From Candidatus Omnitrophota bacterium (GTDB lineage: Bacteria > Omnitrophota > Gorgyraeia > Zapsychrales > Fredricksoniimonadaceae), in the NCBI GenBank assembly GCA_031386565.1, contig JANNCL010000267.1, positions 1 to 35,642 of the forward strand: 35,642 bases of DNA, in the 5' to 3' direction. Both the position numbers and the translations under genes were made by a program. Shown here one piece after another: positions 9,079 through 35,642 of this stretch (position 1 is the stretch's first letter; each line of letters starts with the position of its first letter). Below the pieces are notes generated by a model, which searched no databases, had not been told where the DNA came from, and was given only the letters and a program-made list of their open reading frames with translations.

Positions 9079-9306
9079 ATGATCATTGCCGCGGGAAAAT
9101 TTAAAGCACAATGTTTAAAGATCATGGATGAAGTGCACAATCATCATCGGGAAGTGATTGTTACGAAATATGGAAAGCCTTTTGTCAAATTGACGGGGAT
9201 AAAATCAACGCCTAAAAAATCGTTATTTGGTTTAATGAAGGGGTCTGTGACCATCCATGAGGATATCATAGGGCCGTCCGGGGATAAGTGGGATGCCGAA
9301 AAGTAA
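9079..9306 (+). CDS. Phd/YefM-family antitoxin (VapB-like)
   Basis: MIIAAGKFKAQCLKIMDEVHNHHREVIVTKYGKPFVKL is a typical Phd/YefM N-terminus. GAGGAGG lies 7-8 nt upstream of ATG 9079, so the ORF-track start at 9043 is unlikely. It overlaps the PIN gene by 14 nt. Confidence 0.8.
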   Translation: MIIAAGKFKAQCLKIMDEVHNHHREVIVTKYGKPFVKLTGIKSTPKKSLFGLMKGSVTIHEDIIGPSGDKWDAEK

Positions 9307-9730
9307 TGGATCACAAGCGAAAACATTGCTTTTAGATACGCATGTTTGGCTTTGGCTGATCAATGATAGCGATCAGCTTAAGGGGGCCCGAATAGTCGGC
9401 CACATTGAAGAGTACGCGCAACACAACGGATTAAGGGTTTCCGCGATCTCTGTGTGGGAGATCGGGATGCTGGTTGCGAAGAAAAAGATCACGCTCTCTA
9501 AAGATGTTTTTTTATGGGTAAAAGAGTCGCTTAAAGAAAACGGGTTGACTGTTGAGCCTTTGAGCAATGAGATCTTATTAGAAAGCAATCTTTTAGATGT
9601 TCACGGCGATCCTGCGGACCGGATGATAATAGCTACAGCAAAATTAACGCACGCGGCGATAATGACCGCAGATAAAGCCATCATTCAGTTCTGCCGTAAG
9701 CATGATATGGAAGTTGTGCCGGTAAGCTAA
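9293..9730 (+). CDS. vapC: PIN-domain toxin VapC
   Basis: LLLDTHVWLWL (first acidic Asp), SVWEIGML, DPADRMIIATA and MTADKAI match the PIN acidic residues. It overlaps the upstream antitoxin. Confidence 0.85.
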   Translation: MPKSNGSQAKTLLLDTHVWLWLINDSDQLKGARIVGHIEEYAQHNGLRVSAISVWEIGMLVAKKKITLSKDVFLWVKESLKENGLTVEPLSNEILLESNLLDVHGDPADRMIIATAKLTHAAIMTADKAIIQFCRKHDMEVVPVS

Positions 9731-11888: not shown

Positions 11889-14800
11889 ATGCGGAAAACG
11901 ATATTTAGCCTAGTTTTGGTCAGCTTCTTGATCAGTAACATCAATATTCCTTTGCTTAGGGCAGGGGAAGTTGTTGTGCCCATCATGCCCAAGCCGGGCA
12001 CCATGGTTTCTTTAAGTCCTATCTTTACCCCGGCTTATCTTAAAGGGATTGTTATTCATCCCGACAATGCCCTGCAATTCGACTTTTTGATCAACAAAGG
12101 CGATGGAAATTTAAACACTCAAGAAAAGAATCAGGAATATACTAAACTAGTCAAATACTTCCTGGCGGCACTCACCGTCCCGGATCAAGACCAATGGGTG
12201 AACTTAAGCCCGTATGAAAAAGACCGCATTATTAAAGATGACTTCGGCAAGACCGAAATGGGCCGCGACCTTTTGGGTCAAGATTATTTGTTAAAGCAGA
12301 TCACCTCATCTTTAATGTATCCCGAATCTGGTTTAGGCAAAAATTTCTGGGATAAAGTCTATGCCAAAGCCCAAGAAGAATTTGGCAACACCAATATCCC
12401 CGTCAACACATTCAACAAAGTCTGGATCGTGCCAGATCAAGCCATTGTTTATGAAAGCGGCAATATTGCGTATGTAGGGCGCAGTCATTTGAAAGTGATG
12501 TTGGAAGAAGATTATCTTGCCATCAACAAAAATAAATCCGTAGGGGAGGACCTTGTGTCCTCCCGCCATGCCGGGCCGATACAAGATCGGCCCCTACAAA
12601 ATACCGATCAAGCACAAATAATCCGTGAACTCATCCTCCCCGAATTAGAAAAAGAAGTCAACCAAGGCAAAAATTTCGCCCAATTACGCCAAGTTTTTAG
12701 CGGCATGATCCTAGCCACTTGGTATAAAAAAGCATTGAAAGAATCTTTGTTAGCCAAAATTTACGCAGATAAAAATAAAACTAAAGGAACGGGATATACA
12801 AAAAGCATTCTCAACCGAAGCCAACCTGGGAAACAACCAAACGACATCGAGCTTGTGTACCAGCAATACCTCCAAGCCTTTAAGAAAGGCGTATACAACT
12901 ATATTAAAGAGGACACAGACAAATACACACATCAACCCATTCCCAGAAAATATTTTGCGGGTGGGGTGAATGGCATTCCAAAAAATGTTCTAGAAGTACG
13001 CCAAGGCACAAGCCCGGCAATGACGGCGGAAGTAAACACCCTTGATGCCGCGCAAGTTAGTTTAGATAGTAAAAAAGCAGATGCGGCGATGAATATTCAA
13101 GAAATACAATCTTACAGCCAATGGGTAGTTCGGATATTGACGACCGGTGTACCGTTGACATTTACAACTGTTTCAGCTCAGGCAGCACAATTTCAAGAAT
13201 TTGTATCAACATATCCTTGGTTAGCAACGGGTTCTGCAATAGGGCTGACGGCTGCAACATGGTTTGGGTATTATTTGTGGAGTATGTTTCATACGTTAAA
13301 GGGAATGGGGCGTGCTTATGACCAGAAAATAGTGAGCAAGGAACAATTTCGTGCGTGGCTAGATGAATATCTTCCCACACAAAGCGACGCAATATTGATT
13401 GGCTTATTGAACCACCGACAGATGGCAGTTCGGGAAAAATCTGCGGAAATATTAGTGCGTTTGAAAACTAGAAGGGCTTCTCAAGAAGAGGTGATCCAAG
13501 CATTGTTGGGAAGACTTGGCGATTATGATCCTGTTCATCAGAGGGCATTATTAGGATTGAAGGAATTAGGAGTAAGCCAAGAACTCCTATTGAGCGAATA
13601 TCATGTCATTGTCTGGAATGCAGATAACTCAACATTTATGCGCTTGGGAGGAGACTCCGAACGCTCCTCTTTTGAGTCTGTTAACAAAGCCATCAAATTT
13701 TTTAGTGAAATAGGTGAACAAGGCAGGGATGAATTAGTTGCTATAGGTAAAAATCATCCAAGTGAAGGTGTTCGAAAGCGAGCGGGAGAAATTGTATCCA
13801 GGATAGTATGGGATTATGGGACATGGGGTTCAACTTATACTTTGGATGATGTCGAAATGGCAATAAAAATGTTAGGAAGAATGGGGTCGGTAGGGTTGTA
13901 TGAATTATCCAGAATAAAAGGGGAAGATCTTGACCGCAGGGTTATTGAAATGGCGAAAAATCAAATAGACGCGGCGATGGGGGAGAATTTGAGTTATAAG
14001 GGCAAGGACTTTGAAATCAGCTCGCAAGGACTATTGATTGGCACAATATATTCAATTTATTTTCTTTTACGTGAAAGGGCTATTGCTTCGAAGCATCCAA
14101 CGATTGCATTTGACCTAGATGGAACGATTGCTTTTTGGAACGGGAGTGAATATCTGATAAGACCCGGAATCGAAGAACAAATCCGTAAGCTTAAACAAAG
14201 GGGTTTTCGTATAGTTTTATGGACGTCAGCACCAAGAGAGCATGTTCGTGTTAACTTTATTGAAAAGAATTCTGCAATTGCTAATTTTTTTGATTTAGTT
14301 ATTTCCAGAGAAAGTTTCAGCCCTTTAATAGAAAATGAGCAAGCAATGAAAGGCGTTTATGCAAGATTTATGAAGATTCCAGTAAGTGATTTTATGGAAA
14401 GAATTCATAGAACATATTTTGCGACTAACAATGATTGGGGATTTAAGGATTTTTTGTTGCTGGGATACAAGTTCTTAGTTGATGATACACCGCTCAAGAT
14501 TTTAAAAGGTCAGCCTTATCCTCTAATCCAAGAGTACAAGATGAGGTACATGCAGGCGGGATTTTTCTACACTAATTCTCAAGGAGTGAGTCTGGGTGAC
14601 GATTATCCGATAGGAAATCTAGCTGATACGATTCAAGAAAAAATTGAGCAAGCTGACAAATCATTTGGTGGTGGTACTGATGTTGATGTGGCTGGAAATG
14701 TATTAGATGCGGCGATGAAAGATCCCGGCGGTATTGACATGAACTCCGCTAATTTGGATTTGCAGATTAAGCGTGATGGTAAAGGGGTGCCTTTGCCGCT

Positions 14801-14906
14801 TTCTCAGCAAGATATGGCGCTGTTGTCTCGTATTGAAGGATTTGTTCCGCGTATCATTGCAATCAAACCTGCCTCTTCATTGCCGATCTTTAGTAAAATA
14901 CAGTAA
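11889..14906 (+). CDS. Secreted modular protein, paralog 2 (1005 aa): conserved N-module + TM segment + HEAT-like repeats + HAD-superfamily phosphatase domain + conserved tail
   Basis: Signal peptide, then an N-module homologous to paralog 1. Hydrophobic helix WLATGSAIGLTAATWFGYYLW. HEAT-like units (HRQMAVREKSAEILVRL, HPSEGVRKRAGEIVSRI). HAD motifs: FDLDGT (14109-14126), LWTSA, VDDTP (~14478-14492). Tail: GGIDMNSANLDLQIK..GFVPRII. Confidence 0.9.
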   Translation: MRKTIFSLVLVSFLISNINIPLLRAGEVVVPIMPKPGTMVSLSPIFTPAYLKGIVIHPDNALQFDFLINKGDGNLNTQEKNQEYTKLVKYFLAALTVPDQDQWVNLSPYEKDRIIKDDFGKTEMGRDLLGQDYLLKQITSSLMYPESGLGKNFWDKVYAKAQEEFGNTNIPVNTFNKVWIVPDQAIVYESGNIAYVGRSHLKVMLEEDYLAINKNKSVGEDLVSSRHAGPIQDRPLQNTDQAQIIRELILPELEKEVNQGKNFAQLRQVFSGMILATWYKKALKESLLAKIYADKNKTKGTGYTKSILNRSQPGKQPNDIELVYQQYLQAFKKGVYNYIKEDTDKYTHQPIPRKYFAGGVNGIPKNVLEVRQGTSPAMTAEVNTLDAAQVSLDSKKADAAMNIQEIQSYSQWVVRILTTGVPLTFTTVSAQAAQFQEFVSTYPWLATGSAIGLTAATWFGYYLWSMFHTLKGMGRAYDQKIVSKEQFRAWLDEYLPTQSDAILIGLLNHRQMAVREKSAEILVRLKTRRASQEEVIQALLGRLGDYDPVHQRALLGLKELGVSQELLLSEYHVIVWNADNSTFMRLGGDSERSSFESVNKAIKFFSEIGEQGRDELVAIGKNHPSEGVRKRAGEIVSRIVWDYGTWGSTYTLDDVEMAIKMLGRMGSVGLYELSRIKGEDLDRRVIEMAKNQIDAAMGENLSYKGKDFEISSQGLLIGTIYSIYFLLRERAIASKHPTIAFDLDGTIAFWNGSEYLIRPGIEEQIRKLKQRGFRIVLWTSAPREHVRVNFIEKNSAIANFFDLVISRESFSPLIENEQAMKGVYARFMKIPVSDFMERIHRTYFATNNDWGFKDFLLLGYKFLVDDTPLKILKGQPYPLIQEYKMRYMQAGFFYTNSQGVSLGDDYPIGNLADTIQEKIEQADKSFGGGTDVDVAGNVLDAAMKDPGGIDMNSANLDLQIKRDGKGVPLPLSQQDMALLSRIEGFVPRIIAIKPASSLPIFSKIQ
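12540..12597 (+). repeat. 58-nt REPIN-like inverted doublet read in frame inside the paralog 2 N-module (same site as 3599-3656)
   Basis: GTAG GGGAGGAC CTTGT GTCCTCCC GCCATGCC GGGCCGAT ACAAG ATCGGCCC CTAC. Both stems are perfect. It encodes VGEDLVSSRHAGPIQDRPL. Confidence 0.85.
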
Positions 14907-15005
14907 ATTTCTTCCCCGTTTGGAAATAATTGTTTCAGAACACATTTTTATTGACAATGATCTTGTTATATAGTAACCTTGGTTACAGTAACGGGGGTTG
15001 CAATT

Positions 15006-16346
15006 ATGAAATTTTATGATCGACAACAGGAATTGGCCGAACTTAACACCTTGATGGGACAGGCTAAGGGTGGATCGCGTATGGCGGTCCTGACTGGTCG
15101 CAGGCGCGTGGGAAAGACGCTGCTTTCCCTGGAGTTCGCCAGGGACAAAAAGCATCTTTATCTTTTTGTAGCTAAGAAGTCCGAGGCCCTGCTTTGCGAA
15201 GAATACGTTGCAGAGATAAAACGGATGTACCCTGATGCACCCGTTATTGGGAATATTCGTTCCTTTGCGAATGTCTTTCAACTTTTACTGCGGATCGCCG
15301 TGGATGAACCACTTACGGTTATCATTGACGAGTTCCAGGAGTTTTACAACATCAACCCCTCTGTTTATTCCGAGATACAAAAACTTTGGGACTTGAAAAA
15401 GGCCAAAAGCAAGCTGAACGTCATTTGCGTTGGGTCGGTGTATTCGCTGATGCACAAGATCTTCGAGGGTTCCAAGGAGCCCTTGTTTAATCGTGCGGAT
15501 CGGATGTTTATGATCAAGCCGTTTTTGATTGGAACCATGGCCGGCATCCTAGAGGACTATAAGGTAAAGAATGCGACGGAACTCTTTAATTACTATCTCT
15601 TTACCGGTGGAAGCCCGAAGTATATTGATCAGCTAGTTGAGAACCAGGCGTTTACGTTTGAGAAGATCCTGAACTTTGCGGTTGAGGCCAACTCGCCATT
15701 CTTAAACGAAGGCAGGAACCTTCTGATCGAGGAGTTCGGGAAAGAGTATGGGACGTATTTCTCCATACTTGAGCTGATCTCGGTTGGGAAGACGGGCCGT
15801 TCGGAGATCCAGTCTATTCTGGAGTCGGATGTCGGCGGATACCTCGACCGGCTGGAGAGGGATTACGCTGTCATCGAGAGATATAAGCCGGTGAACGCGA
15901 AGCCAAACTCAAAAGCGCAAAAGTACCGGATCGCGGATAATTTCCTGGCCTTCTGGTTCCGGTTTATTTATCGCAACCGGGCTGCAGTCGAAACCGGGAA
16001 CTATGAGTACATCAGGGATATAATCAGGCGTGACTATTCAACGTATGCTGGCCGCATTCTGGAGCGGTTCTTCCAGTCTCTGTTTGCCGAGACCGGAGAG
16101 TATAACCGTATCGGCTCGTATTGGGAGAAGGATGGCCACAACGAGATCGACCTGGTGGCAATGAACGATATTAAGAAGATCATGGTCATTGCCGAGGTCA
16201 AGATGAACAAGGATAGGATCGACCTAGCCGGGTTAAAGCTCAAGTCCAAGGCGTTGATCGCCAGTTATCCAAAGTACAAAGTCGAGTGGCAGGCGCTCGG
16301 ACTTGAGGATGTTGAGCGTTTGATCAATCGGTCAGGCGGTGTCTGA
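15006..16346 (+). CDS. AAA-type ATP-binding protein (Arch_ATPase/ATPase_2-like N-domain + DUF234-like C-terminal domain)
   Basis: FYDRQQEL..GRRRVGKT (Walker A) and IIDEFQ (Walker B). The C-terminal IGSYWEKDGHNEIDLVA...AEVK resembles a PD-(D/E)xK motif. GGGGG lies upstream of ATG 15006. GC is visibly higher than in neighbours. Confidence 0.8.
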   Translation: MKFYDRQQELAELNTLMGQAKGGSRMAVLTGRRRVGKTLLSLEFARDKKHLYLFVAKKSEALLCEEYVAEIKRMYPDAPVIGNIRSFANVFQLLLRIAVDEPLTVIIDEFQEFYNINPSVYSEIQKLWDLKKAKSKLNVICVGSVYSLMHKIFEGSKEPLFNRADRMFMIKPFLIGTMAGILEDYKVKNATELFNYYLFTGGSPKYIDQLVENQAFTFEKILNFAVEANSPFLNEGRNLLIEEFGKEYGTYFSILELISVGKTGRSEIQSILESDVGGYLDRLERDYAVIERYKPVNAKPNSKAQKYRIADNFLAFWFRFIYRNRAAVETGNYEYIRDIIRRDYSTYAGRILERFFQSLFAETGEYNRIGSYWEKDGHNEIDLVAMNDIKKIMVIAEVKMNKDRIDLAGLKLKSKALIASYPKYKVEWQALGLEDVERLINRSGGV

Positions 16347-17423: not shown

Positions 17424-17454
17424 CATGGCGGGACGACACAAGGTCGTCCCCTAC
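17424..17454 (+). repeat. Intergenic single REP-like unit (half of the 58-nt element)
   Basis: CATGGC GGGACGAC ACAAG GTCGTCCC CTAC. It has the same spacer fragment, the same ACAAG loop and the same CTAC end as the right half of the in-CDS doublets, with a different but self-complementary stem. Confidence 0.8.
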
Positions 17455-17493: not shown

Positions 17494-17567
17494 TGCCCGG
17501 TGGTGTAAAGGTAGCACACGAGAATTTGGATCTCGTTGTCAAGGTTCGAATCCTTGCTGGGCAACCA
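17494..17567 (+). tRNA. tRNA-Gln (anticodon UUG), CCA encoded
   Basis: Manual cloverleaf. Acceptor TGCCCGG/CTGGGCA. D-arm GTGT-AAAGGTA-GCAC. Anticodon arm CGAGA-ATTTGGA-TCTCG (TTG at positions 34-36). 4-nt variable loop. T-arm CAAGG-TTCGAAT-CCTTG. Discriminator A, then CCA. Confidence 0.9.
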
Positions 17568-22334: not shown

Positions 22335-22778
22335 ATGCAAGTAATTCTAATGAATAATGTGGAACATTTAGGAAAAGTCGGCGACGTGGTCAAGGTAAAA
22401 GACGGCTATGGCCGTAATTACTTGCTACCGCGGGAAATAGCCGTGGAGGCCACGGCAGGGAATATGAAACGCATTGAGAAAGAAAAGGTCAAGCGTTTAG
22501 CGCAATACGAAGAACAGCGTAAAGCCGCCCAAGCAAAGGCGGAAGTGATCAGCAAGGTGTCATTGACGATCGCAGTGGAAGTCAACGATCAGGAAAAATT
22601 ATACGGGGCTATTTCCGAGACCGAGATCATTAAGGCCTTTGAAGCCGAAGGCCAAAAGATCGATAAGAAATCCTTAAGTATTGAAAAAGCGATCGAGGAT
22701 CTGGGCATCTTTGAAGTGGGTGTCAAATTACATCCGGAAGTGATCGCCAAAGTCCGTTTATGGGTAACGAAGAAATAA
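22335..22778 (+). CDS. rplI: 50S ribosomal protein L9
   Basis: MQVILMNNVEHLGKVGDVVKVKDGYGRNYLLP. Confidence 0.9.
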   Translation: MQVILMNNVEHLGKVGDVVKVKDGYGRNYLLPREIAVEATAGNMKRIEKEKVKRLAQYEEQRKAAQAKAEVISKVSLTIAVEVNDQEKLYGAISETEIIKAFEAEGQKIDKKSLSIEKAIEDLGIFEVGVKLHPEVIAKVRLWVTKK

Positions 22779-24097
22779 GGATCCCGCCCCAGAACATCGA
22801 GGCTGAGAAAGCCGTTTTGGGAGCGATGATGTTAAGCGATGAAGCTATCGGGACTGCTCTAGAGCATCTCGATAGCTTTTATTTTTATGAGACCCGCCAT
22901 CAAAAGATCTTCGAGGCGATGCGCGAGCTTTATACAGAGCGTCGTCAGGTCGATCTGATCACCTTGACCGATCATTTAAAGAATAAAGCCATCTTTGATG
23001 CCGTGGGCGGCAAGAACTATGTGATGGAGATTGCCGATTTTGTCCCCACCGCGGCGAACGTCAAATACTACATCGATATCATTAAGGAAAAAGGCATACA
23101 GCGTCAGCTTATTAAGAATTCGACGGAGATCATTGCCAAGAGTTACGGGACGGATGTCAATGTTGATGAATTGGTCGATGCCGCGGAACAATTGATCTTT
23201 GAGATCGCCACCTCCAAACAAAAGCAGCAGGCGGTGCCGGTCAAAGATTTGGTGAAGGCCGCGATCGAGACCATCGACAGTTTGTATCAGCGCAAGCAGG
23301 CCATAACCGGGGTGCCTACCGGTTTCATCGATTTCGATAAAATGACCTCAGGTCTGCAGAAGTCCGATCTGATCATCATTGCCGGTCGCCCGTCCATGGG
23401 GAAAAGCGCGTTCGCGGTCAGTATCGGTGAGAATGCCGCTATCGATCATAAGGTGCCGGTGGCCATTTTTTCTCTGGAAATGTCTAAAGAGCAATTAGTG
23501 CAGCGCATGTTATGTTCCCAGGCAATGGTCGATGCGAACAAGGTGCGCACCGGTATGTTATCCCCTTCGGATTGGCCGCATCTGACCAAAGCTGCGGGCA
23601 AGCTTTCCAGTGTCCCTATTTTCATTGATGATACGCCGGCCATTTCCGTGCTTGAATTACGTGCCAAAGCCCGCCGGTTAAAGGCCGCGCATAATATCGG
23701 TCTCATCATTGTGGATTATTTACAGCTGATGGTATCATCGGCCAGGGCGGAGAGCCGCCAACAAGAAATTTCCGAAATCTCTAGATCCTTAAAGGCTTTA
23801 GCGCGTGAATTAAGAGTCCCATTGATCGCGATCAGCCAGTTATCTCGCGCCGTTGAAAGCCGCCAGGACCATCGCCCGCAATTATCCGATCTACGTGAAT
23901 CCGGCGCCATCGAACAGGACGCGGATGTGGTGGTCATGCTCATGCGTGAAGAATATTATACCCCCACCGAAGAAAACCGCGGCATCGCGGAGGCCATCAT
24001 CGGCAAACAACGTAACGGCCCTGTCGGTTCCGTCAAAATGAAATTCTTTAAAGAGTACGTCAAATTCGCGAATTTAGAAACAGCGCACGGGCAGTAA
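22760..24097 (+). CDS. dnaB: Replicative DNA helicase DnaB
   Basis: PPQNIEAEKAVLGAMML, Walker A GRPSMGKS, IIVDYLQLM, LSDLRESGAIEQDADVV. Confidence 0.95.
   Translation: MGNEEIRIPPQNIEAEKAVLGAMMLSDEAIGTALEHLDSFYFYETRHQKIFEAMRELYTERRQVDLITLTDHLKNKAIFDAVGGKNYVMEIADFVPTAANVKYYIDIIKEKGIQRQLIKNSTEIIAKSYGTDVNVDELVDAAEQLIFEIATSKQKQQAVPVKDLVKAAIETIDSLYQRKQAITGVPTGFIDFDKMTSGLQKSDLIIIAGRPSMGKSAFAVSIGENAAIDHKVPVAIFSLEMSKEQLVQRMLCSQAMVDANKVRTGMLSPSDWPHLTKAAGKLSSVPIFIDDTPAISVLELRAKARRLKAAHNIGLIIVDYLQLMVSSARAESRQQEISEISRSLKALARELRVPLIAISQLSRAVESRQDHRPQLSDLRESGAIEQDADVVVMLMREEYYTPTEENRGIAEAIIGKQRNGPVGSVKMKFFKEYVKFANLETAHGQ
24041..24079 (+). repeat. Direct repeat copy A (functional dnaB 3' end)
   Basis: AAATTCTTTAAAGAGTACGTCAAATTCGCGAATTTAGAA matches 24700-24738 at 35/39 positions. 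Confidence 0.85.
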
Positions 24098-24174
24098 TCG
24101 GTGAATCTTTAGTCTCATCTTAGTCGCCTTGACGATGACATCATTACATGATAAATTTATAAAACGAAGGAGGA

Positions 24175-24414
24175 GTGGTGCCTACAATTTTAGTTGTTGG
24201 ATCCTATAGGTTCTTCTTTTACTCAAGTGATGCGCAAGAACCAATTCATGTGCATGTTCAGTCTGGCGTTTGTTCGGCAAAATTTTGGATAAATCCTACT
24301 CGTTTGCAATCATCGAAAGGGTTTAATCATCGGCAGATAACTGAGATCATGAAACTTGTAGAGAAGAACTCTGGGCTTTTTGAAAGGAAATGGCATGAAT
24401 ACTTTAACTCTTGA
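24175..24414 (+). CDS. DUF4160-family small protein
   Basis: FFFYSSDAQEPIHVHVQSG..AKFWINP...W.EYF is the DUF4160 pattern. GTG start (24175 or 24178) follows GAAGGAGGA. Confidence 0.75.
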   Translation: MVPTILVVGSYRFFFYSSDAQEPIHVHVQSGVCSAKFWINPTRLQSSKGFNHRQITEIMKLVEKNSGLFERKWHEYFNS

Positions 24415-24694
24415 ACACACAAGTGTCGCGACCAAGCTGACGTTTTCTGATGATTCTTTTACGGTTTATTTAGATGACGGAAGGAATATCAATATCCCAT
24501 TAGCATGGTACCCCAGGCTTTTGTCAGGGAATAAGAAAGAGCGTGAACAGTATGAATTTATTGGCGGAGGCGAAGGTGTGCATTGGCCGAAGCTTAATGA
24601 AGACATTCAAGTAGAAGGTCTTTTAGCCGGACGGGCATCTCAAGAAAGTCAAAGCTCCCTAAAGAAATGGTTTCAAAAACGGAACAAGAAATAA
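24395..24694 (+). CDS. DUF2442-family small protein
   Basis: LDDGRNINIPLAWYPRL...EFIGGGEGVHWPKLNEDIQVEGLL is the DUF2442 pattern. It overlaps the DUF4160 gene. ATG 24395 is preferred over 24380. Confidence 0.7.
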   Translation: MNTLTLEHTSVATKLTFSDDSFTVYLDDGRNINIPLAWYPRLLSGNKKEREQYEFIGGGEGVHWPKLNEDIQVEGLLAGRASQESQSSLKKWFQKRNKK

Positions 24695-24699
24695 TCAAA

Positions 24700-24783
24700 A
24701 AATTCTTCAAAGATTACGTCAAATTCGTGAATTTGGAAGGATCTTCGGTCAATAAATCTTTCTCCACGCATATTACAAATTGA
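24700..24783 (+). pseudogene. Orphaned alternative dnaB 3' end (direct repeat copy B plus its own 14-codon tail and stop)
   Basis: Reads KFFKDYVKFVNLEGSSVNKSFSTHITN*, compared with the dnaB end KFFKEYVKFANLETAHGQ*. There is no start codon or upstream helicase sequence. Confidence 0.6.
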
Positions 24784-24832
24784 TGGGAATAGAAGGTGAC
24801 AGTTGAGATAAAAAGAGTGGTGGAAGATCGTA

Positions 24833-25171
24833 TTAGTTTATAGCGGTATTTTCTTGAATGGTTTTATATAAAGCTAGTAATAATTTTGCGCTATTAAAGC
24901 TTTTCTTATTCAATAGTTTTCTGAGTTGTTGTAAAGATTCTGCTTCCTCGGTTCCTTCAGGTGCTTTTTTAACGAGCTCACATAATTCAATCTCTAAAAC
25001 TTTTGCTATGCGGTTAAGCGTATGCAAAGACGGCTGTTTTAAGCCCCTTTCAATCAACCCAATATAGTTATCGCTAAGCTCTGTTTTTTCTGCTAATTGG
25101 GCTTGAGTTAATCCACACTGCTCTCTATAAGAGCGAACTCTTTTGCCAACCTGTTGGTAAGGATTTTCCAT
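24833..25171 (-). CDS. XRE-family helix-turn-helix transcriptional regulator
   Basis: GKRVRSYREQCGLTQAQLAEKTELSDNYIGLIERG..PSLHTLNRIAKVLEI (HTH_3). GGAGG lies 7 nt upstream of the ATG at 25171 (minus strand). Confidence 0.85.
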   Translation of the reverse strand: MENPYQQVGKRVRSYREQCGLTQAQLAEKTELSDNYIGLIERGLKQPSLHTLNRIAKVLEIELCELVKKAPEGTEEAESLQQLRKLLNKKSFNSAKLLLALYKTIQENTAIN

Positions 25172-25319
25172 TAAAAACCTCCATGACGGATATATTAATT
25201 GCATTTAATGGCGCCTTCCAGATACCAATGGTTGTTATTTTATGTTGAAATAATAACTATCAGTGTGTATTATGATTTTGATCTATCTGATAAATATTTT
25301 ATTCTGGGAATATCAACAT

Positions 25320-25925
25320 ATGTCTATGAGGCTTAACTTAGGGTGTGGGACAAAAAAGCGTGAGGGCTGGATCAATATTGATTCTGCTAAAGAATGTGAT
25401 CCAGATGTCCTGCATGATTTAACTGAGCCATTACCTTTTGAAGACCAATCCGTGGATGAAATAATGGTTGATGCGGTTTTAGAGCATTTTGATAAATATG
25501 CACGCTATTTTATCTTGTACGATTGGGTAAGAGTTCTGAAGACGGGCGGTTGTATTTCGATTGGGGTTCCAAATTTTCAGAAGATTTTGTTTCGTTATTT
25601 CAAGTGGGGATTTGATGATCTTGTTGACACTATCTTTGGTGAGACTATGTGGGAGTCAAAATATTACATTGGTCATTTCGGAAGTCATAAATGGGGGTAT
25701 TCGGATAAAAGTTTAAAGAGTTTTCTGGAATGTTTTGGTATAAGTCGTATTGAAGTTCAAAAACATGGCCTTATCCTCACCGCTAAAGGAATAAAATCGA
25801 GGCATATCTCTTATCAAGATTTGAAAAATTCTCGGATTTACTCTCCCAATAATGCCTGTGGCACAGGAAGGGCATTTATGACTTTAGATGAAGTTAAAGA
25901 AGTTGCTAATTTTAAGGTTAGGTAA
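25320..25925 (+). CDS. Class I SAM-dependent methyltransferase (Methyltransf_11/23-like)
   Basis: LNLGCGTKKREGWINID (motif I), VDEIMVDAVLEHF, RVLKTGGCISIGVPN. The ORF-track GTG at 25263 adds an implausible hydrophobic leader. Confidence 0.7.
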   Translation: MSMRLNLGCGTKKREGWINIDSAKECDPDVLHDLTEPLPFEDQSVDEIMVDAVLEHFDKYARYFILYDWVRVLKTGGCISIGVPNFQKILFRYFKWGFDDLVDTIFGETMWESKYYIGHFGSHKWGYSDKSLKSFLECFGISRIEVQKHGLILTAKGIKSRHISYQDLKNSRIYSPNNACGTGRAFMTLDEVKEVANFKVR

Positions 25926-25930
25926 AATGC

Positions 25931-26707
25931 ATGGCAGTTAAGATTTCCATTGTCATTCCCGTAAAGAACGAGGAATTGCGCATCAGGCGATGTTTGGATT
26001 CGCTTAAAGGATGGGTAGATGAAATTATTATTTTAGACGATAATTCAGATGATCGAACTGCTGTCATTGCGTGTGAAGAATATGGGGCTGTTGTAATAAA
26101 GCAGTCACTAGAGAAAGATTGGTCAAAACAAAGAAACAGGGGCGCATTAGCTAGTCGCAATGACTGGATATTACAATTGGATGCTGATGAAGTTGTTCCT
26201 AGACAAACAGCACGAATCATTGAGAATGTTCTTAATAAGGATGTAAAAGAAAAGGCCTTTTCTTTAACAAGGGTCAATGTTTTGGCGAATAAGCCCTTGT
26301 TGCATTGTGGCGCTGGAGAATATGTCAGATTGTATGACCGTAGGTCAGCAGCATGGGAAGGGGAAGTTCACGAGCAATTGCGCGTTCAAGGTTGTGTGGC
26401 TAAAATCGATGGGTGTATTGAACATTATCCTGTTGATTCCATGGAATATTTTCTAGGAAAGAATCTCTTTTACGCCAGAATATCAGCAGGACAATTTGTT
26501 AGTAAAGTTGCGTCTTTAGAAGCAAGAGAGATCCGTTCTCGACTAACAGTTAAGGTATTGAAATTATTCTGGAAGAGTTATGTGAGAAAGAAAGGTTATA
26601 GGGATGGGATGCAAGGGTTGATATGGTGTGTTTTAAACATCATGACATCCCAAATGTATTGGCTTATGGTCTGGGAGAAAGCCAGTAACAGCGGGAAGCT
26701 TAAGTAA
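25931..26707 (+). CDS. Family 2 glycosyltransferase
   Basis: ISIVIPVKNEE...CLDSL..WVDEIIILDDNSDDRT and LQLDADEVV (DxD-type motif). Confidence 0.85.
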   Translation: MAVKISIVIPVKNEELRIRRCLDSLKGWVDEIIILDDNSDDRTAVIACEEYGAVVIKQSLEKDWSKQRNRGALASRNDWILQLDADEVVPRQTARIIENVLNKDVKEKAFSLTRVNVLANKPLLHCGAGEYVRLYDRRSAAWEGEVHEQLRVQGCVAKIDGCIEHYPVDSMEYFLGKNLFYARISAGQFVSKVASLEAREIRSRLTVKVLKLFWKSYVRKKGYRDGMQGLIWCVLNIMTSQMYWLMVWEKASNSGKLK

Positions 26708-27552
26708 TGAAAATCAGTGGCTGTACCATTGTCCGGAATGGAATTAGACTACAATACCCTATTGTTGAATCCATATGCTCGATTTTGCCGATCTGTGATG
26801 AGTTTATTGTCAATGTAGGGGACAGTGATGATGGGACGCTTGCCTTAATCCAAAGCATTGGGTCGCCCAAACTGAAAATAATCGAAACTGTATGGGATTT
26901 TACTAATAAAGAGAAAGTTTTATCCCAGCAGACAAATGTTGCGATCGGCCATTGTACGGGAGACTGGATTTTTTATCTACAAACAGATGAGGTTGTACAC
27001 GAATCGGATTTACTAAAGATAAAAAGATGTATGGAAGACAATTTAAGAAACTGCGCGGTTGATGCGCTGCGTTTTAGATGGTTTCATTTCTTTGGAAGTC
27101 ATTTTCGTTATCGTATTGACAGGGGCTGGTATCAAAAACAGGATCGGATTATTCGCAATGATGGGGGCATTGAATCTTACGATGATGCTTTTTCTTTTCG
27201 ACGCAAGAATGGACAATCGTTGCGCATAAAAAGCACAGGTTGCTTTATTTATCATTATGGCTGGGTCTTTACTCCTGAGGAAATGGCAAAACGTCGGATA
27301 AATTCTGGTAAAATATGGGGCGATGACCGTTCACGGGAGGAAAAGACCGGCAGGTATGAGTTTGGGAATTTGAAGCGTTTTCCTATTTATTTTGGAACGC
27401 ATCCTAGTGTTATGAGGGATTTGATCGCAAAACATGAAGTTAGTCGGAAGGATTGGAGTCAAATACGCAGTTGGTATTTCTGGAATCCTATTCTTTGGAT
27501 GCGTCTGAGGTATAAAACAGGATATCGAGTAAAGCATCGGATAGAAGATTGA
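26707..27552 (+). CDS. Glycosyltransferase family 2-like protein
   Basis: ISGCTIVRNG...CDEFIVNVGDSDDGT and FYLQTDEVVHE. Its start overlaps the preceding stop. Confidence 0.65.
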   Translation: MKISGCTIVRNGIRLQYPIVESICSILPICDEFIVNVGDSDDGTLALIQSIGSPKLKIIETVWDFTNKEKVLSQQTNVAIGHCTGDWIFYLQTDEVVHESDLLKIKRCMEDNLRNCAVDALRFRWFHFFGSHFRYRIDRGWYQKQDRIIRNDGGIESYDDAFSFRRKNGQSLRIKSTGCFIYHYGWVFTPEEMAKRRINSGKIWGDDRSREEKTGRYEFGNLKRFPIYFGTHPSVMRDLIAKHEVSRKDWSQIRSWYFWNPILWMRLRYKTGYRVKHRIED

Positions 27553-27581
27553 ATGTAAAATTTGCCTGAGATAGAGTGTAA

Positions 27582-28304
27582 ATGAAAATATATAGGAATA
27601 TATATCTCGCTGAGCACATTGAAGGTTTCTTGACCACGCGAGAAGGACAATTATTGTATTCTATGGCGCGGGCATGCCATGGTTTAGGGGTAATCGTAGA
27701 GATCGGATCCTGGAAAGGAAGATCCACTATATGGCTTGCTTCTGGTTTACAAGATGGCTCTTCTAAATCCATTCTTTATGCAATTGATCCTCACACTGGT
27801 TCTCCTGAGCATCAGGGAGAAAATAGTGTTTGGACATTTGATCAGTTCCAATCGAATATAACGGCAGCCGGATTGCAACATGTTATAAAGCCATTAATCA
27901 AAACTTCCGTTGAAGCGATAAGTCACATCAATGATAAGATAGAATTGCTTTTTATTGATGGGGCACATGAATATGAGGCTGTCCGGCTGGATTATGAGCT
28001 TTTTCGTCCGTTGGTGACTAATGGGGGATTTATAGCTTTTCATGATTCTTCTTGGCCTGGCGTTGATCGGCTACTAAATGAAGTTCTGATCAAAGATGGA
28101 TTTAAAGATGTCTATTTTACTGACACACTGTTTTTCGGAATAAAGATACCCCAAGCAACACGCAAAGATCGATTAAAGAATATTATTATGTTGTCGCTTA
28201 ATCGGCAATTTTATAGCACTTGTCGCTCTAAGTTTCCCAAGGCTATTCGCTCATTGCAGAAGAATTTGATCAAGTTGTGCAGAGAAATAATTTATCGTTC
28301 TTAA
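27582..28304 (+). CDS. Class I SAM-dependent methyltransferase (Methyltransf_24 / CmcI-like)
   Basis: VIVEIGSWKGRSTIWLA, LLFIDGAHEYEAVRLDYE, GGFIAFHD. Confidence 0.65.
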   Translation: MKIYRNIYLAEHIEGFLTTREGQLLYSMARACHGLGVIVEIGSWKGRSTIWLASGLQDGSSKSILYAIDPHTGSPEHQGENSVWTFDQFQSNITAAGLQHVIKPLIKTSVEAISHINDKIELLFIDGAHEYEAVRLDYELFRPLVTNGGFIAFHDSSWPGVDRLLNEVLIKDGFKDVYFTDTLFFGIKIPQATRKDRLKNIIMLSLNRQFYSTCRSKFPKAIRSLQKNLIKLCREIIYRS

Positions 28305-28391
28305 AATAGTTTAAAATTGATTGTTTGATTTCATTCTTCTTAACATCCCTAAAAAATTCGTTAATCTAGGTATAAATATTTTTTTTGTCAA

Positions 28392-28420
28392 TTGACATGA
28401 CAAACCCCAGCCCTTATAAT
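28392..28420 (+). promoter_or_regulatory. Consensus sigma70 promoter directly abutting the bamA start codon
   Basis: TTGACA (28392-28397), exactly 17 nt, TATAAT (28415-28420). ATG 28427 lies 6 nt after the -10 box and there is no SD. Confidence 0.6.
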
Positions 28421-28426
28421 TCCACC

Positions 28427-30904
28427 ATGCCTAAAAAATCACTCACATACCTATTTATTTTATTGTCCATTTTAATTCTAACTGACGCTAAAACCTCATT
28501 GGCGCAAGAGGTTGCGGCGGAGGCAACGGCGACGCAGGATAATGCGGCCGCAGTGCCGGCGGATACAACTCCGACACAAGATAACGCTCAAAAACCTGCC
28601 TCGGATATGCCGACCATGGAGCTTAAACAGGAAGCCCCATCAGCAGCGGTAAGCATGCCTTCCGAAACAGCACCGATGGCTAAAACAGTCAAGTCGATCG
28701 ATATCATCGGCAATAAATCAATTGGTATCACACAAATTCTAGCTAAGATCAAAACCCGTGTGGGGCAAGATTATGTGGAGAATATCGTCAGCGATGATTT
28801 AAAACGTCTATATAACACCGGTCATTTCTCTGATGTGCAGATCGATCACGAAGATCTTGACGGCGGTTATAAGGTGATCGTGAAACTGAAGGAAAAACCG
28901 ATCATCGAGGAAGTAACGTTCTCGAAATTGAAGTATTACAATAAAAAATTCATCGAAAGCAAGATCAAGACCCGTAAAGACAAGTTCCTGGATAATAAGA
29001 CGTTAAAAGATGATATTAATATCATCGAAGATCTTTATAAGAAAAAGGGTTTGACGCAGGTGAAAGTGGATGTGGAAACGTTCATGGATGATACCACCAA
29101 TAAAGCCAGTTTGCATTTTATCATCCGCGAAGGATTTCGCATGAAGATCAAGCGCATTAATGTCTACGGAAATACTGCGTACCGTGACAACAAGATCATA
29201 AAGACCATGAAATCCCGTCCGGCTTGGTTGTTCAATTCGGGGTTCTTGAAGGAAGAAGACCTTGAAGAGGACATGACCAAGATCCAGGCATTCTATGAAC
29301 AAAATGGTTATATCGATGCCAAAGCGTCATATAAGGTCGATTCGTTGTATAAGGGGTTGGTCAACGTTGATGTGACGGTCGAGGAAGGCAAACGCTATTA
29401 CGTGGGTGTTTTGGCGATGGAAGGTAATGCTATTCTTTCAGAGCTGGATATCAAATCAAAGATCAAGAATTTACGCGAAGGTAATGTTTTTAGCCGGGAG
29501 AAATTACAGGATGATGTCAGCGCGGTACGCGATGCATATTTCGATCATGGGTATATCTCCGCATCCGTGGTCGATGCGACATCCTTTAATGCTGAATCCG
29601 GCCGTGTGGATGTAAAGCTTACCATTAAGGAAGGTAAATTAGCCTATATTGATAAGATCAAGATACAGGGGAATGCGAATACCCGTGATATTGTTATCCG
29701 CCGGGAATTACGTATGTACCCTGGGGATCAATTCGATGGGGCGAAATTACGTAAATCCAAGGAACGCTTGCGTAATTTAGGCTATTTTGAAGATGTGGGT
29801 TATGATATCGAAGACACCGATCAAGAAGACCAAAAAGACTTAGTCGTTCAAGTGAAAGAAGCCAAAACGGGTAGTTTCTCTTTCGGCGGCGGTTATAGTA
29901 CGGTTGATAAATTGGTCGGCTTTATCGAATTGGAACAGAAGAATTTCGATATCGCTAACTGGCCATCCTTTACCGGCGGCGGACAGGATTTACGTATTCG
30001 CGGCGAGATCGGTTCTTCCCGTCAGAACGCGGAATTGAGTTTTACCGAACCTTGGGTGTTTGATTATCCTGTTTCAGCTGGGTTCGACCTGTTCGTGACC
30101 AGTTTAACGAAGGATAGTTCTACCGGTTATGCCTATGATGAGCGTCGTACCGGCGGAGATCTTCGTTTAGGGAAGAGTTTCAACGATAATTTCAATATGG
30201 GCAGTTATTATCGCTTAGAGCAGATCAAGATCAATAACGTTGCTTCCAATGTTTCTGCTGATCTGGCCGCGGAAGAAGGGACCAATGTGGTCAGTTCCAT
30301 CGGCGTGTCTAGCACGAATGATTACCGTGATAGTCCTTTGGCTACGACGAAGGGATTTACTTGGCATAATAGCGCTGATCTGGCCGGCGGTGTTCTTGGC
30401 GGCGATAAGGATTTTTACCGATTGCAAACAGAGGGCAGTTATTATGCTCCTTTTAAATTCAATGAGCTGGTGACCGTCCTTGAAGTTAGTGGAAAAACAG
30501 GCATGGTCAAAGCATACAATAAAACAGCTCGCGTGCCGATCTTTGAACGTTACTTTGCTGGTGGTGCCAATACTATCCGTGGGTACAATGAACGTAAAGT
30601 AGGTCCGCTCGATAGGAATACCAATGATCCTATCGGGGGTGAAGCGATCTTGGTCGGTAGTATGGAATATACCGTTCCGATCATCGAGGTGCTAAAAGCG
30701 GCGGTTTTCTTTGATGCCGGTAACGTGTGGTCGAAGGCCAGCGATTATGCCAGCGGCGGAATCAAGTCCGGAACAGGTTTGGGCCTGCGGGTCAAAACCC
30801 CGATCGGTCCTCTAAAGCTTGATTATGGTATTCCTCTAAGCAAAGAACCAGGTGAAAATAAGAAGAGCGGCAAGTTCTATTTCAGTGTAAGCCGAGGGTT
30901 TTAA
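28427..30904 (+). CDS. bamA: Outer membrane protein assembly factor BamA (Omp85), with Ala/Thr/Pro/Gln-rich linker after the signal peptide
   Basis: Signal peptide MPKKSLTYLFILLSILILTDAKTSLA, POTRA-like repeats (IKSIDIIGN.., IKRINVYGN.., IDKIKIQGN..), and a C-terminal barrel ending ..GKFYFSVSRGF (terminal aromatic residue). Confidence 0.9.
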   Translation: MPKKSLTYLFILLSILILTDAKTSLAQEVAAEATATQDNAAAVPADTTPTQDNAQKPASDMPTMELKQEAPSAAVSMPSETAPMAKTVKSIDIIGNKSIGITQILAKIKTRVGQDYVENIVSDDLKRLYNTGHFSDVQIDHEDLDGGYKVIVKLKEKPIIEEVTFSKLKYYNKKFIESKIKTRKDKFLDNKTLKDDINIIEDLYKKKGLTQVKVDVETFMDDTTNKASLHFIIREGFRMKIKRINVYGNTAYRDNKIIKTMKSRPAWLFNSGFLKEEDLEEDMTKIQAFYEQNGYIDAKASYKVDSLYKGLVNVDVTVEEGKRYYVGVLAMEGNAILSELDIKSKIKNLREGNVFSREKLQDDVSAVRDAYFDHGYISASVVDATSFNAESGRVDVKLTIKEGKLAYIDKIKIQGNANTRDIVIRRELRMYPGDQFDGAKLRKSKERLRNLGYFEDVGYDIEDTDQEDQKDLVVQVKEAKTGSFSFGGGYSTVDKLVGFIELEQKNFDIANWPSFTGGGQDLRIRGEIGSSRQNAELSFTEPWVFDYPVSAGFDLFVTSLTKDSSTGYAYDERRTGGDLRLGKSFNDNFNMGSYYRLEQIKINNVASNVSADLAAEEGTNVVSSIGVSSTNDYRDSPLATTKGFTWHNSADLAGGVLGGDKDFYRLQTEGSYYAPFKFNELVTVLEVSGKTGMVKAYNKTARVPIFERYFAGGANTIRGYNERKVGPLDRNTNDPIGGEAILVGSMEYTVPIIEVLKAAVFFDAGNVWSKASDYASGGIKSGTGLGLRVKTPIGPLKLDYGIPLSKEPGENKKSGKFYFSVSRGF

Positions 30905-35399: not shown

Positions 35400-35642
35400 A
35401 TGCCTCGAAGATTTTTAAGTTTAATCCTATCTATATGTTTATTGCCTTTGCCGCAAGTCTATGCAGCAGAAGGACTTTTAAGCTTGCCTGTGCCTGGGAC
35501 TATGGTACGGCTAAGCCCTGCTTATGAACCGCCACTATTAAAAGGCATTAAAGTTCATCCTGATAATCCGTTTCGTTTCGAGTTCATTTTAGATAAAGGA
35601 AACGAAACGCCCGCCGTAGCCAAAGGCGAAAGCACTTTGGCG
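35400..35642 (+). CDS. Secreted modular protein, paralog 3 (first 81 codons only; runs off the window; absent from the ORF track)
   Basis: My translation from ATG 35400 is MPRRFLSLILSICLLPLPQVYAAEGLLSLPVPGTMVRLSPAYEPPLLKGIKVHPDNPFRFEFILDKGNETPAVAKGESTLA. 36/39 residues are identical to paralog 1 after the signal peptide. The nucleotide differences I checked are mostly synonymous. Confidence 0.85.
   Translation, partial: MPRRFLSLILSICLLPLPQVYAAEGLLSLPVPGTMVRLSPAYEPPLLKGIKVHPDNPFRFEFILDKGNETPAVAKGESTLA

Follow-up and report, generated by a model that had tools for sequence, protein, structure and literature searches.

A probable dnaB 3′-end relic at the inner seam of a two-module insertion between dnaB and bamA in Candidatus Omnitrophota

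Some integrative elements, among them islands that target tRNA and tmRNA genes and Salmonella genomic island 1 (SGI1) in the 3′ end of trmE, restore the 3′ end of the gene into which they insert by means of a copy that the element itself carries. SGI1 has been reported to integrate in tandem (PMC2297512). A different route to duplicated gene ends, displacement of 3′ ends through homology-anchored recombination, has been described for type VI secretion system (T6SS) and rhs loci (PMC5361080). The orphan 3′ ends of rhs, CDI (contact-dependent growth inhibition) and T6SS loci have been attributed to homology-facilitated illegitimate recombination (PMC5361080; PMC3240628); Jackson et al. 2009, as cited in PMC5361080, is a further source on such orphan fragments. 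Here, we analyze a locus that bears on both routes. It lies on a 35,642-nt stretch of a Candidatus Omnitrophota bacterium (contig JANNCL010000267.1 of assembly GCA_031386565.1; hereafter the window), in which part of the 3′ end of dnaB, the gene for the replicative helicase, recurs downstream, beyond a two-gene cassette. Judged from sequence comparison, the second copy reads as a non-functional relic, 39-45 nt long, of the dnaB 3′ end that was stranded at an internal seam of a larger island.

The direct repeats, at 24041-24079 (copy R) and 24700-24738 (copy R′), are identical at 35 of 39 positions and lie 659 nt apart, start to start. This duplication, first noted in a preliminary description of the locus, stands far beyond chance: shuffled sequences gave an expectation of 0 matches with 3 mismatches allowed (100 shuffles), and the window holds no rival site. 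Nor is the repeat a dispersed motif within the window, where the best further match to either copy, on either strand, is 24/39. The features on which the comparison turns are as follows.

22760-24097, plus strand: dnaB, replicative helicase, 445 aa, intact (Pfam DnaB and DnaB_C, E = 1e-113, profile covered to residue 438).
24041-24079, plus strand: copy R, DNA AAATTCTTTAAAGAGTACGTCAAATTCGCGAATTTAGAA, dnaB codons 428-440, protein KFFKEYVKFANLE.
24080-24097, plus strand: native dnaB tail, TAHGQ and stop, unduplicated; relatives have TAHAQ or TAHGQ at the same place.
24700-24738, plus strand: copy R′, protein KFFKDYVKFVNLE, the probable relic of the dnaB 3′ end, possibly beginning at 24695 (TCAAA) with a 3-nt deletion.
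24739-24783, plus strand: read-through tail of the orphan, GSSVNKSFSTHITN and stop; island DNA, not dnaB, with no Pfam or PADLOC match.

Copy R had been taken to represent the last codons of dnaB. It does lie in the 3′ end of the gene, but it spans codons 428-440 of 445, and TAHGQ with its stop is not part of the duplication. Local alignment extends the repeat leftward by possibly 5 nt (TCAAA) across a 3-nt gap, whereas a rightward extension (TCGGTGAATCTTT versus TCGGTCAATAAATCTTT) is not significant (p = 0.2-0.9 in shuffles). The four differences between the copies comprise two synonymous changes together with E→D and A→V, and the longest identical run is at most about 13-14 bases. The breakpoints are sharp on both sides of R′, with the stop of the upstream DUF2442 gene 5 nt to its left and foreign DNA, block B of the island, beginning exactly after the NLE codon on its right. 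A perfect 14-nt palindrome, AAATTCGCGAATTT, occupies 24061-24074 within R and is imperfect in R′ and in all relatives examined. It follows from the KFANL codons, and it may be coincidental or may mark a fragile or recombinogenic spot.

The extent of the inserted DNA emerges from the empty site in related genomes. Related loci were collected by exact-protein look-ups, by a DnaB search of one genome per species, which gave at least one close relative, and by searching a degenerate DNA pattern for the motif in JGI metagenomes (35 loci). In the window, the gene order is pth-rpsF-ssb-rpsR-rplI-dnaB, then an AT-rich stretch, then bamA-ompH-lpxD-lpxC/fabZ-lpxA-lpxI. In L001-L012 and L088-L091, with 59-95% DnaB identity, dnaB is followed by a spacer of about 50 nt, which contains a TTGACA…TATAAT promoter, and then by the same series from bamA to lpxI. 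The JGI loci likewise place bamA after dnaB in 33 of 35 cases, the remaining two contigs stopping too early. Across 47 related loci, the motif occurs exactly once per locus; relatives free of the cassette thus carry one copy rather than both, and none of the 47 dnaB ends is occupied or duplicated. On the left, homology to relatives ends directly after the dnaB TAA (24097|24098); on the right, homology to L001, L088, L089 and L091 resumes at about 28376, shortly before the bamA ATG at 28426 (BamA by TIGR03303, E = 1e-170). Because the empty site of relatives consists of dnaB, about 50 nt and bamA, the inserted DNA is the whole interval from 24098 to about 28375, that is, 4.3 kb with 37-40% GC against 51% for dnaB, and not the 0.62-kb cassette. 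The suggestion in the preliminary description that the cassette could be the edge of a larger AT-rich island is therefore correct. Its comparison of the repeats with attL and attR is unlikely to hold: the host/foreign junctions lie at 24097/24098 and at about 28375/28376, neither of them carries a repeat, and R′ sits 600 nt inside the island. Separately, the contig of one relative (L090, 91% DnaB identity) stops 80 nt after the dnaB stop, while its sister contig L089 runs into bamA; this break at the dnaB-bamA junction might reflect strain variation there.

The terminus now attached to dnaB is the native one and behaves as vertically inherited. In the window, the protein ends …KFFKEYVKFANLETAHGQ (…NLETAHGQ, stop). 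It is 95% identical to Omnitrophota DnaB proteins ending …NLETAHAQ; the tail of the nearest relatives is …KFFKEYVKFANLETAHAQ, and the window's own ending, …TAHGQ, recurs in some that are slightly more distant. In DNA sequence, identity to the L001 gene amounts to 83%, evenly along the whole of dnaB, and to 84% over the last 57 nt. Compared with the orthologous 39-mer of the closest relatives, R matches at 35/39 positions, and all four differences are synonymous. Since TAHGQ and TAHAQ endings recur in relatives and the tail diverges no more than the rest of the gene, the terminus is native, and the earlier proposal that an inserted element had supplied a replacement terminus to dnaB finds no footing in it. 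At the same position of DnaB in another Omnitrophota genome (P0114), we observed a tail …RFENLASVENLAHVD in place of the …RFENLAHVD of its relatives, six residues being duplicated in tandem and in frame.

Copy R′ reads KFFKDYVKFVNLEGSSVNKSFSTHITN and is indeed, as first reported, open in the dnaB-like frame to a TGA stop at 24781-24783. What does not hold is its designation as an alternative DnaB C-terminus: the tail GSSVNKSFSTHITN is unlike any DnaB tail among the 120 homologues listed, and a DNA pattern for a dnaB ending in the orphan manner (…NLEG) returned 0 matches in JGI metagenomes. The frame thus stays open through the orphan by accident. The corresponding open reading frame (ORF), 24667-24783, has 38 codons and overlaps the DUF2442 gene out of frame, and the sequence before its ATG at 24667 shows no Shine-Dalgarno motif. 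If a dnaB ending …NLEGSSVNKSFSTHITN and a stop were to be found directly before an XRE gene, the orphan would be a former working terminus, and replacement would become the favored model.

The affinities of the 39-mer point to an origin within the lineage. Among the 36 distinct 39-mers of the 47 related loci, the maximum match to R′ is 34/39, against 35/39 for the window's own R, and the 39-mers of more distant Omnitrophota match it at 27-32 of 39 positions. R and R′ also share minority states: C at position 18 (8/36), C at position 27 (7/36) and G at position 30 (3/36). Because R′ is closest to the window's own R and shares these states with it, the orphan derives from the dnaB of this lineage or of a very near, unsampled relative, and not from a distant donor. 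With four differing sites in a short 39-mer whose positions vary among relatives, either copy may be the one that changed.

Behind dnaB, the island divides on sequence grounds into two modules: a toxin-antitoxin (TA) cassette (24128-24694) and an XRE-controlled block of methyl- and glycosyltransferase genes (block B, 24739 to about 28375). Together with the short linker at the left edge and the resumption of ancestral sequence on the right, their features are as follows.

24098-24127, no strand: linker of 30 nt, starting directly after the dnaB stop; homology to the cassette family begins only at 24128.
24129-24157, plus strand: predicted sigma-70-like cassette promoter, TTGACG-17-TAAATT with TG before the -10, then a GGAGG ribosome-binding site (RBS).
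24175-24414, plus strand: DUF4160 gene, putative toxin (Pfam PF13711, E = 5e-16).
24395-24694, plus strand: DUF2442 gene, putative antitoxin (Pfam PF10387, E = 1.4e-19).
24833-25171, minus strand: XRE-family helix-turn-helix regulator, 112 aa from an RBS-preceded ATG (Pfam HTH_3, E = 5.5e-15).
25320-28304, plus strand: methyltransferase, two GT2 glycosyltransferases and a Methyltransf_24 gene (by Pfam; GC 0.37-0.40 versus 0.51 for dnaB).
28376-28425, plus strand: return of the ancestral sequence between dnaB and bamA, with a T-rich spacer, TTGACA at 28391-28396 and TATAAT at 28414-28419.

The roughly 620 bp between the repeats hold only the promoter-like region, the RBS and the DUF4160 and DUF2442 genes, as originally described. 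By domains and gene order, the cassette is a putative type II TA module of the dhiTA type, a DUF4160/DUF2442 system described experimentally in Dickeya dadantii 3937 (PMC8198452; PMC12065111); in Thermus, a related pair made plasmids more persistent (PMC12724237). The likeness lies in the small size, overlap and order of the two genes, in the presence of both Pfam domains and in a promoter of their own, and the cassette proteins matched no PADLOC or NCBIfam model. The two genes overlap by 20 nt, and the same 20-nt overlap recurs in relatives with 74-78% DUF2442 identity. DUF4160 is 78-81% identical to the 78-aa partners in L095-L099, and its true start is probably the GTG at 24178, which would give 78 aa as in the homologues. 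When translated from their first start codons, DnaB and DUF4160 have no exact counterpart in the protein collection, in which the products of neighboring genes are present; the source annotation probably uses other starts for these two genes.

Copies of this family are scattered in unrelated contexts, as expected of a selfish addiction module. The nearest relatives of the cassette occur in other uncultured bacteria, including Omnitrophota, where they are flanked by genes for type II secretion or stand next to HEPN/nucleotidyltransferase genes. DNA homology to the cassettes of L095, L097 and L099 spans 24128-24684, covering the promoter, whose -35 region (CTTGACGA…) is conserved in all three, and both genes; the flanks are unrelated. 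Around the cassette relatives elsewhere, we found no dnaB-like sequence and no comparable flanking repeats, including duplications of the upstream gene. The mobile unit is accordingly the promoter with its two genes, the dnaB fragment forming no part of it. A protein search with DUF2442 recovered no relative in viral contigs, and a DNA search with the cassette region (24098-24832) gave no match in plasmid records. Membership in the dhiTA family says nothing about how the module reached the dnaB site. In one cassette relative (L092), the hairpin-forming sequence GATTCCCGCTTTCGCGGGAATGACA is repeated directly and perfectly over 25 nt, at 4519-4543 and 5956-5980, and brackets HEPN, nucleotidyltransferase and DUF2442 genes; it could be an element of the repetitive extragenic palindromic (REP) kind or a cassette boundary.

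Block B has a different character. Its XRE gene points towards the orphan and away from the transferase genes, and homologues of the regulator (at most 68% identity) stand divergent to sugar-modifying genes elsewhere and never near dnaB, an arrangement that fits a module of one regulator and its operon. At the 90% identity level in a collection of 15 billion proteins, those of block B stand as singletons, the block is absent from all relatives examined, and a search through the XRE homologues revealed no donor of block B beside a dnaB.

Taking these observations together, we lean, with modest confidence, towards reading R′ as a dead relic of the window's own dnaB end that marks the internal seam of a composite island, assembled by at least two recombination events with displacement of the dnaB 3′ end. 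At least two events would have struck the dnaB-bamA junction. In one of them, dnaB-anchored DNA would have brought or kept an intact dnaB end together with the TA cassette, pushing the other dnaB end downstream. Most simply, this could have proceeded through a homologous crossover in dnaB combined with a join at TCAAA/AAATTC, immediately beyond the stop of DUF2442, that was illegitimate or relied on microhomology, or through RecA-type Campbell insertion of a circular fragment by way of short dnaB homology. The other module would then adjoin the relic exactly after the NLE codon, removing the relic's own tail.

Two orders of events are conceivable. Block B may have fused after NLE first, yielding a DnaB with a 14-residue foreign tail, after which sister-strain DNA carrying dnaB-TAHGQ, stop and cassette would have recombined in, homologously on the left and by an illegitimate or short-homology join on the right; this order would account at once for the sharp limits of the repeat on either side. 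In the other order, the cassette may have entered first and duplicated the dnaB end, for instance on a circle integrated in the Campbell manner over the short homology, and block B would later have replaced the tail of the relic. Under either order, selection would keep the dnaB-attached copy intact while the orphan drifted (4 substitutions and a possible 3-nt deletion), and a dedicated site-specific recombinase would not be needed.

In its mechanism, this displacement account closely parallels that of rhs, CDI and T6SS loci, in which an incoming 3′ end arrives with one or more downstream genes through upstream homology and the old end is shifted downstream with no integrase involved. The orphans of those loci begin with a short conserved piece and then diverge, as R′ does with its 35/39 match to dnaB codons 428-440. 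The likeness is one of mechanism only, as DnaB is an essential housekeeping helicase and not a polymorphic toxin. Moreover, an independent TA module stands here in place of a cognate immunity gene and the next gene is a convergent XRE regulator, and the orphan amounts to 13 codons with no functional tail, in a single case and not a recurrent array. Homology-facilitated illegitimate recombination would likewise supply a one-sided anchor in dnaB and a microhomology join, giving the TCAAA/AAATTC seam.

Several points weigh against displacement. The process of homology-facilitated illegitimate recombination is known from naturally transformable bacteria and from Escherichia coli conjugation, not from Omnitrophota, and it mostly deletes recipient DNA, whereas recipient sequence has been duplicated here. 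Two independent events at one junction are required, and no intermediate, with dnaB and the cassette only or dnaB and block B only, was found in relatives, so that the order and number of events are deduced. A homology of 39-57 nt is short for RecA-mediated Campbell insertion. Furthermore, the right repeat boundary falls exactly at a codon boundary (NLE|), which an attachment-site (att) type or homology-limited crossover between two dnaB ends would explain more neatly. Finally, a weak third match, AAATTCGTTAATCTAG at 28354-28369, coding KFVNL and succeeded by TATAA and then the restored intergenic region, would be in keeping with tandem integration, even though it is not significant as a third copy at the right island edge (p = 0.08-0.15 against shuffles, six reference sequences).

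An unlikely but credible alternative is a single complex event, either template switching in the manner of microhomology-mediated break-induced replication or the import, through dnaB and bamA homology, of a block already assembled in a sister strain. In the former case, a stretch of 39-45 nt from the nearby dnaB end would have been copied into the seam between two foreign fragments, in keeping with the shortness of the relic, the breakpoints on both sides of it and a source sequence 620 nt away. The restriction of the island to this genome and the singleton status of the block-B proteins are compatible with such an event, and the conserved dnaB and bamA flanks would permit homologous import. 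The 10% divergence between the copies, however, calls for considerable elapsed time, and the cassette and block B differ in their relatives and contexts elsewhere, which argues for separate origins; template switching itself lacks direct evidence.

Site-specific integration is likewise unlikely. It would posit integrase-less elements, first block B and later the cassette, mobilized in trans at an att site in the dnaB 3′ end and bringing a replacement terminus, in tandem as attL (R), cassette, a middle att (R′), block B and a decayed attR. Its stronger form, in which the 39-mer is an att core within dnaB where such small cassettes (now a TA module, before it a glycan-modification block), moved by a recombinase encoded elsewhere, accrete in tandem, each renewing the dnaB terminus, strikes us as rather improbable; if true, it would amount to a new trans-mobilized cassette system whose integron-like site of capture lies within a core gene of an uncultured phylum, which the evidence does not favor. 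The locus shares with 3′-end integrative elements the bracketing of foreign DNA by repeats of a gene 3′ end and the intactness of the gene. Both boundaries are sharp, and the right one lies where two dnaB tails would diverge. The perfect palindrome in R and the KFVNL-coding match at the right edge, beside a TAA and the restored intergenic region, could be taken in the same sense, and mobilizable islands are known to build up in tandem at att sites in 3′ ends (PMC2297512).

Of att-type integration into the dnaB 3′ end as first proposed, the bracketing repeat is real, but no recombinase, significant third copy, recurrence or matching flanks of cassette relatives accompany it. The preliminary description had itself noted the lack of an integrase, and among ORFs of at least 90 aa across the 35.6 kb there is no Pfam match to Phage_integrase, Resolvase or a transposase. 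The repeats lie away from the host/foreign junctions, with none at the right edge, and exclude the last 5 codons and the stop. With p about 0.1, and no other match in the window above 24/39, the third copy adds little; 0/47 related dnaB ends are occupied or duplicated. No dnaB-like attP occurs in viral contigs (0 matches to the dnaB motif), the plasmid records do not match the cassette region, and the cassette relatives elsewhere are without dnaB-like or other flanking att repeats. The dnaB terminus diverges from relatives just as the rest of the gene does, and the palindrome, which the KFANL codons entail, is not conserved among relatives.

Other signs of mobile elements were also sought around the island. 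Neither the island nor its immediate surroundings contain a tRNA or tmRNA gene; the sole tRNA gene of the window, for tRNA-Gln (17494-17567), is some 6.5 kb away. Within 23500-29000, no RNA matched Rfam. With regard to integrons, the window encodes no intI-like recombinase, and 24695-24832 holds no notable imperfect palindrome, as judged without a dedicated attC model. Target-site duplications of the transposon type are short (2-14 bp) and exact. A transposon, insertion sequence or miniature inverted-repeat transposable element with such a duplication was considered and rejected, as there are no terminal inverted repeats at the cassette borders and no transposase, and the repeat is 39 nt long, only 90% identical and, on the left, 18 nt off the insert.

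An assembly artefact, in which a chimeric contig joined strains at the repeat, is very improbable, even though the source is a metagenome-assembled genome and the contig of the relative L090 breaks 80 nt after dnaB. An independent contig of 1056 nt (L100) reproduces window positions 24225-25280 with one mismatch and spans the seam from DUF4160/DUF2442 through the orphan to XRE; that junction is no one-off assembly error. The left junction, between dnaB and the cassette, is confirmed by no second contig, and look-ups in the protein collection with the 79-aa and 78-aa DUF4160 products gave no independent record of it. The copies, however, differ at 4 positions and share runs of at most 13-14 identical bases, too short for a k-mer join, and the flanking synteny is otherwise perfect.

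We give least credence of all to a functional orphan, whether a 38-aa peptide (24667-24783) mimicking the DnaB C-terminus or a TA-linked regulatory element, for although its 38 codons are open and its 13 dnaB-derived residues carry only the conservative changes E→D and A→V, it lacks a Shine-Dalgarno motif, overlaps DUF2442 out of frame, has no homologue, family or Rfam match, is absent from all other cassette copies, and owes its 14 further open codons to nothing more remarkable than AT-rich DNA.

The feature is genuine, but as a recombination scar it is an ordinary one, a further case of kinds already known, and not a working alternative helicase end. It provides a clean, well-bounded example of accessory DNA piling up behind an essential gene in Omnitrophota, and shows that a TA module can insert no more than 30 nt behind the dnaB stop and ahead of the bamA promoter with both genes undamaged. 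For annotation, the 38-codon ORF is a pseudogene fragment that should not be called, and the limits of such islands are better drawn from empty-site comparison than from the nearest direct repeat.

Elsewhere in the window, we observed further features in the course of the analysis. Between a TPR gene and a GHMP-kinase gene, 11889-16346 contains a 1005-aa ORF and a 455-aa ATPase_2/DUF234 ORF; the two flanking genes are adjacent in L001, L088 and L089, and by this comparison the interval is a second lineage-specific insertion. The 1005-aa ORF (11889-14906) shares 72-79% identical N-terminal DNA with a 2021-aa ORF lacking a Pfam match (2954-9019) and with the start of the gene after lpxI (35485-35619); the three make up a family of large paralogs. 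Three sites (3599-3657, 12539-12597 and 17424-17454) carry a palindromic element, GTAGGGG…CATGCCGGGC…CCCCTAC, about 59 nt in length; two full copies lie inside the large ORFs and a half copy just upstream of the tRNA-Gln gene, giving the element a REP-type look. Finally, a PIN-domain ORF at 9293-9730 is probably the toxin of another TA pair.

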